From the NCBI RefSeq assembly GCF_045037415.1, contig NZ_CP173438.1: a DNA stretch of 64,000 nucleotides; one strand, given 5' to 3'. This document shows, one piece after another, positions 12,901-15,900 of this stretch (within the stretch, counting starts at the first letter, position 1; the number at the start of each line of letters is the position of its first letter). This stretch comes from Escherichia coli (GTDB lineage: Bacteria > Pseudomonadota > Gammaproteobacteria > Enterobacterales > Enterobacteriaceae). The position numbers are program-made.

Positions 12901-15900
12901 GCATTCCATGTCTGCATTTACCCCGGCAAGTGAAGTCTTGCTGCGTCACAGTGATGATTTCGAACAAAGCCGTATTCTGTTTGCCGGAGACTTACAGGAT
13001 GACCTGCCCGCGCGTTTAGATACCGCGGCCAGCCGTGCTCATACCCAGCAATTCCACCACTGGCAGGTGTTAAACCGCCAGATGGGGGATAACGCCCGTT
13101 TTAGCCTGGTCGCCACGGCGGATGATGTCGCTGATTGCGATACTTTGATTTACTACTGGCCGAAGAATAAACCGGAAGCCCAGTTCCAGTTGATGAATTT
13201 ACTTTCTCTGCTTCCGGTGGGCACGGATATTTTTGTCGTTGGCGAGAACCGCAGCGGCGTGCGCAGCGCCGAGCAGATGCTGGCCGATTATGCGCCGTTG
13301 AATAAGGTAGACAGCGCCCGTCGCTGCGGCCTCTATTTTGGTCGTCTGGAAAAGCAGCCGGTATTTGATGCCAATAAATTCTGGGGCGAATACAGCGTCG
13401 ATGGCTTGACGGTCAAAACGCTGCCGGGCGTGTTTAGCCGCGACGGTCTGGATGTCGGCAGTCAGTTGTTGCTCTCGACGCTAACCCCGCACACGAAAGG
13501 TAAAGTGCTGGATGTCGGCTGCGGCGCAGGCGTTCTTTCCGTTGCTTTTGCGCGCCATTCACCGAAGATCCGCCTCACTCTGTGTGATGTTTCTGCACCA
13601 GCGGTAGAAGCCAGTCGCGCAACACTTGCTGCCAACAGTGTTGAAGGTGAAGTCTTTGCCAGCAACGTCTTTTCCGAGGTGAAAGGTCGTTTTGATATGA
13701 TCATCTCCAACCCGCCGTTCCACGATGGGATGCAAACCAGCCTGGATGCGGCGCAAACGCTGATTCGCGGCGCGGTGCGTCATCTTAATAGCGGCGGCGA
13801 GCTGCGAATTGTAGCGAACGCCTTCCTGCCTTACCCGGACGTGCTGGATGAGACATTTGGTTTCCACGAAGTGATTGCGCAAACCGGGCGCTTCAAGGTG
13901 TATCGCGCCATTATGACCCGCCAGGCGAAGAAAGGTTAAGTATCTGATATCTGTCGCCGCATACCGTGTTGGATGCGGCGTACACGCCTTATCTGACCGA
14001 CAAACGAATTATCCACAATCCGCTGATGGACATTTTTCCAGCAATTACACCTCTGTCGATAATTAACTATTGACGAAAAGCTGAAAACCACTAGAATGCG
14101 CCTCCGTGGTAGCAATTCTTTTTAAGAATTGATGGTATGCGAAGGTGGCGGAATTGGTAGACGCGCTAGCTTCAGGTGTTAGTGTCCTTACGGACGTGGG
14201 GGTTCAAGTCCCCCCCCTCGCACCAAAAACCACGTTGATATTGCTCGCACTGGGCGAAGGTGGCGGAATTGGTAGACGCGCTAGCTTCAGGTGTTAGTGT
14301 TCTTACGGACGTGGGGGTTCAAGTCCCCCCCCTCGCACCAAACGAGGCAATATCAAAAAAAGTAAGATGACTGTGCGAAGGTGGCGGAATTGGTAGACGC
14401 GCTAGCTTCAGGTGTTAGTGTCCTTACGGACGTGGGGGTTCAAGTCCCCCCCCTCGCACCAATTATCTTTACTTCTTTTCTTGTCTCTTCACTGTTTTAT
14501 CACCCCTGATTCAAATTCATTATCATCAGCATGATGCCAGCAATAAGCGCCAGGCACGATGGTAGCAAAACGTAATGCCGTAACTGTTTGTGATACAGCA
14601 TCACCGGCGTCAATACCAATCCCATCAGAATGACAATCCGCCATTGATCCGGCGATAAATCCGCATACATCAGCCCTGTAATCAGCAATCCCGGCAGCAA
14701 CACTCCCCAGCCACTGCCCAGCGTACGTTGCAACATGGTTTCATCTCTTTCATTGATAATGATAACCAATATCATATGATAATTTTTATCATTTGCAAGC
14801 CAGAGAAATCCCTTGCTATCGGATAAACCTATCGCTAGGATTAGCAATCATTATCATTTAGATTACTATCCCGATTATGGCCTATCGTTCCGCACCGCTC
14901 TATGAAGATGTTATCTGGCGAACGCATCTCCAGCCACAGGATGCTGGGCTTGCACAAGCCGTACGTGCGACGATCGCCAAACATCGTGAACATTTGCTCG
15001 AGTTTATCCGCCTGGATGAACCCGCTCCGCTTAACGCCATGACGCTGGCGCAATGGTCATCACCGAATGCGCTAAGTTCTCTACTCGCGGTCTATTCCGA
15101 TCATATCTATCGCAACCAACCAACGATGATCCGCGAGAACAAACCGCTGATCTCACTATGGGCACAATGGTATATCGGCCTGATGGTGCCACCATTAATG
15201 CTGGCGCTACTGACGCAGGAAAAAGCATTAGATGTGTCGCCGGAACATTTCCATGCTGAGTTTCACGAAACCGGCCGTGCCGCCTGTTTCTGGGTCGATG
15301 TGTGTGACGATAAAAACGCAACACCACATTCGCCGCAGCAGCGAATGGAAACGTTAATCAGCCAGGCGCTGGTTCCGGTTGTGCAGGCACTAGAAGCGAC
15401 CGGAGAGATCAACGGCAAACTTATCTGGAGTAATACCGGTTATTTGATCAACTGGTATCTCACTGAGATGAAGCAACTGCTCGGCGAGGCGACGGTTGAA
15501 TCGCTGCGCCATGCCATCTTTTTTGAGAAAACGCTCACGAACGGTGAAGATAATCCACTCTGGCGTACCGTGGTACTGCGCGACGGCCTGCTGGTGCGCC
15601 GCACTTGCTGCCAGCGTTATCGCTTACCGGATGTGCAGCAATGTGGCGATTGTACGCTGAAATGAAAGCACTGCCGGGGAAGTAAACCCGGCATCATGCG
15701 GATTAATAGGGATGCAACACATTACTTGCTTCGCAATGCCGCATACATAACAGAATATCTGCGGCCTCCAACAATCCTGCATCAGAACTGACGCCCAGTT
15801 TCGACATCACATTAAATTTATGCGCGCGGATCGTTTTGATATTGCGTTTAAGCTGCTCGGCAATTTGTGTCATTGAGTAGCCACGCGACATAAAGCGCAA

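Follow-up and report, generated by a model that had tools for sequence, protein, structure and literature searches.

Three tandem genes for tRNA-Leu(CAG), named leuQ, leuP and leuV (b4370, b4369 and b4368), are found in Escherichia coli K-12 MG1655 at positions 4606079-4606401 of NC_000913.3, on the minus strand. A fourth tRNA-Leu(CAG) gene, leuT, belongs to the argX-hisR-leuT-proM operon, which differs from leuQPV in that leuT shares it with tRNA-Arg, tRNA-His and tRNA-Pro. The maturation of both transcripts has been described: the three leuQPV tRNAs are separated by RNase P and not by RNase E, the 3' region of the transcript is unstructured, its termination is Rho-dependent and its 3' tail is trimmed by PNPase and RNase II, whereas RNase E acts on the transcript of the leuT operon (PMC2190699). 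Going by its title, as cited in PMC5137449, the study of Pokholok et al. (1999) places leuV initiation under stringent and growth-rate control, and a FIS site has been located some 70 nt ahead of the leuQ start, with FIS driving duplex destabilisation at the promoter (PMC9122604).

The four K-12 genes fall into two sequence types. leuP differs from the other Leu(CAG) genes by one nucleotide in the variable loop (PMC12472396), and a tRNA-seq preprint accordingly groups (leuP) separately from (leuQ leuT leuV) (bioRxiv 10.1101/2020.02.21.958157). Two details of the processing study deserve mention in passing. Its Table 1 gives the trailers of leuQ (CCAAACGAG) and leuP (CCAAAAACC) swapped relative to the RefSeq order, the sequence itself having AAAACC after the first gene and AACGAG after the second; a figure legend in the same paper describes all four Leu genes as identical and so misses the leuP base (PMC2190699).

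Here we describe the corresponding array in the window, that is, the whole 64,000-nt stretch of E. coli contig NZ_CP173438.1 that was analysed. We are all but certain that the array is the leuQ-leuP-leuV operon, that it yields one precursor and that its leuP is a long-established, inherited minor isodecoder. The gene calls, the identity to K-12, the distribution in E. coli and across genera and the place of the variant pair are results of the present analysis, none of which speaks against the identification; what we say of regulation and processing, and of the functional equivalence of the isodecoders, we infer or take from the literature.

Three tRNA-Leu genes and a single variant base

The window contains exactly three tRNA-Leu genes with the anticodon CAG, all on the plus strand, and ARAGORN found no other tRNA genes in the entire 64 kb. 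Each copy scores 48.5 bits against the Rfam tRNA model RF00005, for which the gathering score is 29, and both programmes together place all three above the family threshold as class II tRNA-Leu(CAG): the anticodon, at gene positions 35-37, lies in a loop of 7 nt, and the long variable arm forms a stem of its own. The coordinates of an earlier note, which had reported three 87-nt genes in tandem at 14139-14461, are therefore right. In all three copies the encoded CCA is preceded by an A; leucine charging by LeuRS depends on the A73 discriminator and the tertiary core.

Alignment of the three 87-nt copies leaves 86 of 87 columns invariant. The sole difference lies at gene position 48: copies 1 and 3, themselves identical to each other, have C there (14186 and 14422), and copy 2 has T (14301). 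The earlier note had correctly placed a T for C in the variable arm of the middle copy, and the two strings that it quoted for the arm, GTGTTCTTACGG and GTGTCCTTACGG, match the sequence; its own proviso, that the three copies might prove identical and the difference a slip of reading, is contradicted by the alignment at position 48. Three near-identical 87-mers cannot have originated by chance. The features of the locus are as follows.

12908-13939, plus strand: rsmC (16S rRNA m2G1207 methyltransferase), upstream neighbour; a 343-aa ORF, annotated in NZ_AP018784.2 and K-12
14028-14042, plus strand: FIS-like 15-mer GGACATTTTTCCAGC, some 70 nt ahead of the presumed start; a candidate put forward on its sequence
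14070-14075, plus strand: -35 hexamer TTGACG of the leuQPV promoter (older name: leuV promoter); found by the promoter scan and identical in K-12
14092-14097, plus strand: -10 hexamer TAGAAT, found by the promoter scan
14098-14105, plus strand: G+C-rich discriminator GCGCCTCC, with the transcription start presumed at its 3' end; based on the sequence and its conservation across genera
14106-14138, plus strand: 5' leader of the primary transcript (5' end presumed), removed by RNase P; assigned by position, with RNase P after PMC2190699
14139-14225, plus strand: leuQ, tRNA-Leu(CAG) copy 1, C-type, CCA encoded; identical to K-12 leuQ
14226-14253, plus strand: leuQ-leuP spacer, 28 nt; identical to K-12
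14254-14340, plus strand: leuP, tRNA-Leu(CAG) copy 2, the T-type isodecoder; identical to K-12 leuP
14301, plus strand: variant base T (C in the other copies) at gene position 48, opposite G55; from the alignment and the cloverleaf pair list
14341-14374, plus strand: leuP-leuV spacer, 34 nt; one A/G difference from K-12
14375-14461, plus strand: leuV, tRNA-Leu(CAG) copy 3, C-type; identical to K-12 leuV
14462-14499, plus strand: 3' trailer, presumed region of Rho-dependent termination; from the lack of an intrinsic terminator and PMC2190699
14500-14736, minus strand: yjjZ (DUF1435 protein), convergent downstream neighbour; annotated in NZ_AP018784.2 and K-12, with a 78-aa translation and synteny by tblastn

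Comparison with K-12

An 801-nt query around the array finds many complete E. coli chromosomes at 100% identity (BLAST) and is present at a coverage of at least 80% in 5405 of 5426 E. coli genomes. The annotated order in one of the 100%-identical records, NZ_AP018784.2, is rsmC, three tRNA-Leu genes and yjjZ, and the neighbours in K-12 are the same; the array thus sits between rsmC and yjjZ, where leuQPV is expected. The expected internal order is also found: a C-type gene, a T-type gene (leuP) and another C-type gene, separated by spacers of the K-12 lengths, 28 and 34 nt. Gene by gene, copies 1, 2 and 3 of the window equal K-12 leuQ, leuP and leuV, the T of K-12 leuP included; promoter, leader and flanking genes are held in common as well, and between the FIS-like site and the end of leuV the window and K-12 MG1655 differ by one A/G only, in the second spacer. 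The proposed equivalence to K-12 leuQPV, which the earlier note had left to such a comparison, is upheld by the identical genes and by spacers that differ in that one base. The fourth K-12 gene, leuT, is C-type, matches window copies 1 and 3 exactly and specifies the same tRNA-Leu(CAG).

Other differences between the two strains lie at the edges of the operon. A few substitutions distinguish the 3' trailers, and the stretch separating rsmC from the FIS-like site is longer in K-12 by about 77 bases, which make up a second REP unit. The interval from rsmC to the leuQPV promoter in the window (13941-14020) holds a single REP-like unit; with its second REP the same interval in K-12 MG1655 becomes a BIME, and the indel stops just upstream of the FIS-like site.

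Promoter, processing and termination

A G+C-rich discriminator is a hallmark of stringently controlled stable-RNA promoters. The best promoter-like site of the region, TTGACG-16 nt-TAGAAT at 14070-14097 (10 of 12 matches in the promoter scan), lies with its -10 hexamer 41 nt from the first tRNA and is followed by such an element, so that all parts of the stable-RNA architecture are present: near-consensus hexamers, a 16-nt spacer and the G+C-rich GCGCCTCC. These sequence features support the stringent-type promoter that the earlier note had proposed. The three CUG-reading tRNAs would be made as a single precursor from this strong sigma-70 promoter with its G+C-rich discriminator, and on the strength of the literature cited above the promoter would be subject to stringent and growth-rate control, with inhibition by ppGpp/DksA, and to activation by FIS. 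The 15-mer GGACATTTTTCCAGC is a candidate for the reported FIS site.

A scan of 13900-14800 for terminator-like hairpins on the plus strand returned none, which fits what is expected of leuQPV, and the absence of an intrinsic terminator from the window agrees with the Rho-dependence described for the operon (PMC2190699). The precursor would be resolved into three tRNAs by RNase P, and exonucleases would shorten its unstructured, Rho-dependent 3' tail.

Structure of the variant

The cloverleaf of the three tRNAs comprises an acceptor stem (1-7/77-83) containing an A5.C79 mismatch, a D stem (10-12/24-26), an anticodon stem (28-32/40-44), a variable-arm stem (46-49/54-57) closed by the 4-nt loop UUAC, and a T stem (60-64/72-76). 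Unconstrained minimum free energy (MFE) folding, which often misses the cloverleaf of unmodified tRNA sequences, did not return it for copies 1 and 2 (z-scores -1.4 and -0.6), and the pairing is for this reason taken from the tRNA covariance model and from a cloverleaf built by hand. The variable-arm stem is further supported by a compensatory change in another species (locus L110), in which U47-A56 is replaced by C47-G56.

Position 48 faces G55 in this cloverleaf, forming a C-G pair in copies 1 and 3 and a U.G wobble in leuP. The computed cost of U.G relative to C-G is about 2.9 kcal/mol, whether in the cloverleaf or in the isolated hairpin. The C-to-T of leuP would thus exchange one variable-arm C-G pair for a wobble and leave the stem paired. 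The variable arm is not known to be read by the E. coli LeuRS as an identity element, so that leucylation and decoding of the leuP product are expected to be the same as for the C-type.

The A5.C79 acceptor mismatch is itself of some interest. It occurs in all copies of the window (14143/14217 in copy 1, with equivalents in copies 2 and 3), while in the Morganellaceae every copy of the homologous genes has G5/T79 there, which forms a G.U pair; such uniformity within each group points to concerted evolution of the copies across the two loci.

Distribution within E. coli

Of 5429 complete E. coli chromosomes, 4536 contain the exact T-type gene and 893 do not (BLAST). A query that combined T48 with another change found 4846 records, at a median of one place per genome; this median, together with the word-size and low-complexity rules of the search, leads us to read these matches as T-type genes only, and we infer that about 89% of chromosomes have a T48-type gene and about 11% lack one. 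The exact leuQ-leuP spacer joined to the first 60 nt of the T-type gene occurs in 4526 E. coli records, the spacer is missing from 453, and in some 108, by subtraction, a C-type gene comes after the spacer (BLAST), a division of the T-less genomes that is approximate as it derives from BLAST identity bands.

Two routes to the loss of T can be recognised: the array has shrunk to one or two copies, as in O157:H7, or it has been homogenised to C-C-C. The T-less records do not represent independent events, because many of them probably belong to a single lineage (O157:H7). The variation in copy number and type was seen at the E. coli array loci L123, L125, L127, L130, L126 and L129, of which L126 and L129 are C-C-C. 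The states at the leuQPV locus in named strains are these.

O157:H7 strains 2149 and Z1814, and river isolate AVS0578: one C-type gene
O157:H7 TR01: two C-type genes (C-C)
EH09-18-41 and ETEC H10407: three C-type genes (C-C-C)

Contraction and homogenisation of the array in E. coli indicate that the T-type gene is dispensable. A C-C-C array in the K-12 derivative NZ_CP025268.1 was set aside as evidence of conversion; its third gene shows one additional C in the homopolymer run, and its C-C-C state may stem from assembly polishing.

The homopolymer in question is a run of eight C residues present in each tRNA-Leu copy (14210-14217, 14325-14332 and 14446-14453 in the window). In public assemblies it varies by one C in either direction (L127, L128, L036, L041 and L076), and some of these cases may be sequencing errors. 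In lines defective in mismatch repair, the tRNA-Leu 8-C runs are reported as the dominant hotspot for indels across all tRNA genes (PMC8510543). The base substitutions reported in that study adjoin the 8-C run rather than position 48, and its supplements, consulted for gene conversion at leuP, make no mention of conversion (PMC8510543).

leuP has also acquired further sense-strand C-to-T changes. The O111 lineage keeps T48 and adds C26T, an exact form found in 44 records, and E. albertii has C24T (L124:816-902 and L003:12791-12877); each of the two creates a G.U pair in the D stem.

Distribution across the Enterobacterales

The cross-species scan covered one genome per species, was made for the T form only and yielded at least 120 loci; since it is conditioned on T, lineages that have lost T are invisible to it. 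Among the matches listed, at least 33 are C-T-C triple arrays, and these span at least 12 enterobacterial genera: Escherichia (coli, albertii and sp.), Salmonella, Citrobacter, Klebsiella, Raoultella and Kosakonia, as well as Phytobacter, Pseudocitrobacter, Pseudenterobacter, Intestinirhabdus, Franconibacter and Enterobacter spp. They adjoin rsmC (79-98% protein identity) and usually yjjZ too (tblastn). T stands outside the middle copy in only three of the three-copy arrays among the matches listed, two of them C-C-T and one T-T-C.

The arrays of other Enterobacterales resemble that of the window in their promoter, their G+C-rich discriminator, their rsmC neighbour and their C/T dimorphism at the same site. 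The sequence TTGACG-16-TAGAAT-GCGCCTCC is invariant in every rsmC-linked array of the Enterobacteriaceae whose promoter was found by regular expression, and most Xenorhabdus arrays share it. The Morganellaceae (Xenorhabdus, Proteus, Morganella and Photorhabdus) differ in having two copies, in the order T-C or C-T, with the G5/T79 acceptor pair and beside an rsmC whose identity is about 55-58%. C-type and T-type genes are therefore both found on two acceptor backbones, A5/C79 in the Enterobacteriaceae and G5/T79 in the Morganellaceae, from which it follows that the T is either old or recurrent and not recent.

A T-type gene is also common at the other locus. leuT of K-12 is C-type, whereas T-type leuT occurs in at least about 40 further argX-hisR-leuT-proM loci among the matches listed, including those of Enterobacter, Klebsiella, Citrobacter, Raoultella, Pantoea, Morganella, Xenorhabdus and Yokenella and, within the genus Escherichia, that of E. 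whittamii.

Some rsmC-linked arrays of Enterobacter, Lelliottia and Huaxiibacter (L008, L031, L062 and L107) depart from the common pattern. The first two of their three copies carry A5C and C49T, the latter a U.G wobble at the neighbouring pair of the variable stem, and the third copy has T48 together with changes in the 3' acceptor strand. Isodecoder diversity in the variable arm is consequently wider than C/T48.

Origin and persistence of the C/U dimorphism

The earlier note had offered two readings of the T at 14301, a minor isodecoder or a recent mutation, and only the former stands. A change private to this strain or to a narrow lineage would be unremarkable a priori, C-to-T transitions being common, and lineage-private second changes are indeed known in leuP itself, namely the C26T of O111 and the C24T of E. 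albertii. K-12 leuP nevertheless carries the same T at position 48, as do 4536 of 5429 E. coli records, and syntenic arrays of at least 12 genera have it in their middle copy; we rejected a recent origin on the evidence of K-12 and of the E. coli chromosomes, and consider it highly improbable. An error of sequencing, of assembly or of reading is more improbable still, to the point of being negligible. Repeat arrays are prone to polishing errors, and the 8-C run of some public assemblies (L127 and L128) illustrates the hazard with its gain or loss of one C; the base in the window is plainly T, however, the surrounding 801-nt region is 100% identical in many independent complete genomes, and T is the majority state in E. 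coli, so that this explanation was discarded too. The same T in K-12 leuP makes the variant a fixed minor isodecoder, and neither a recent mutation nor a read error. The T of the window is the documented leuP allele, already known from K-12, and not a new mutation.

Whether the dimorphism owes its persistence to selection is a different matter. It could be held that the C-G/U.G alternative in the variable arm of tRNA-Leu(CAG) is maintained across the order by selection, the U.G isodecoder being functionally distinct. Several patterns speak for this: the order C-T-C holds in 33 of the 36 three-copy arrays with a T and the core motif among the matches listed; both types occur on both acceptor backbones, and position 48 stays dimorphic even though the copies evolve in concert; with leuT also T-type in many genera, a genome has roughly two C-type and two T-type genes; and homogenisation to C-C-C does take place in E. 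coli (L126 and L129), so that a neutral difference might be expected to vanish over longer times. Were selection at work, the U.G form would have a role of its own, for instance in stability, modification, processing, fragment formation or nuclease sensitivity or resistance. Yet about 11% of complete E. coli chromosomes do without a T-type gene, among them the successful O157:H7 lineage, whose arrays are down to one or two C-type copies, and the change is a conservative wobble in an arm that, as far as we are aware, is no identity element for the E. coli LeuRS. A scan for the T form alone, blind to T-loss lineages, moreover gives no rate of retention, and recurrent sense-strand C-to-T change opposite G, as in C49T, C26T and C24T, explains the same pattern. 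We regard maintenance by selection as unlikely, though less so than either of the two explanations discarded above.

All the single-copy variants seen (C48T, C49T, C26T and C24T) are C-to-T changes on the sense (non-template) strand opposite a G. Such a spectrum fits what transcription-associated cytosine deamination might produce in a very highly transcribed gene where only wobble-compatible changes are tolerated.

The window accordingly holds a textbook tRNA operon, and its odd base is an ordinary, documented leuP allele. In the Enterobacterales the leuP isodecoder is of long standing and wide distribution, and the array varies from one to three copies in E. coli and is sometimes homogenised. 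The locus offers a convenient natural case for studying how tandem tRNA genes evolve in concert and how they mutate in association with transcription.

Other features of the window

Matches to two further Rfam families were noted elsewhere in the window. Four tandem matches to naRNA4, a nucleoid-associated non-coding RNA that forms a REP-derived repeat array, lie on the minus strand at 5868-6248, with scores of 76.6-79.1 bits. A match to the SymR antitoxin RNA at 41097-41173, also on the minus strand, scores 83.1 bits against a gathering score of 61, which implies that the symE-symR locus is present in the window.
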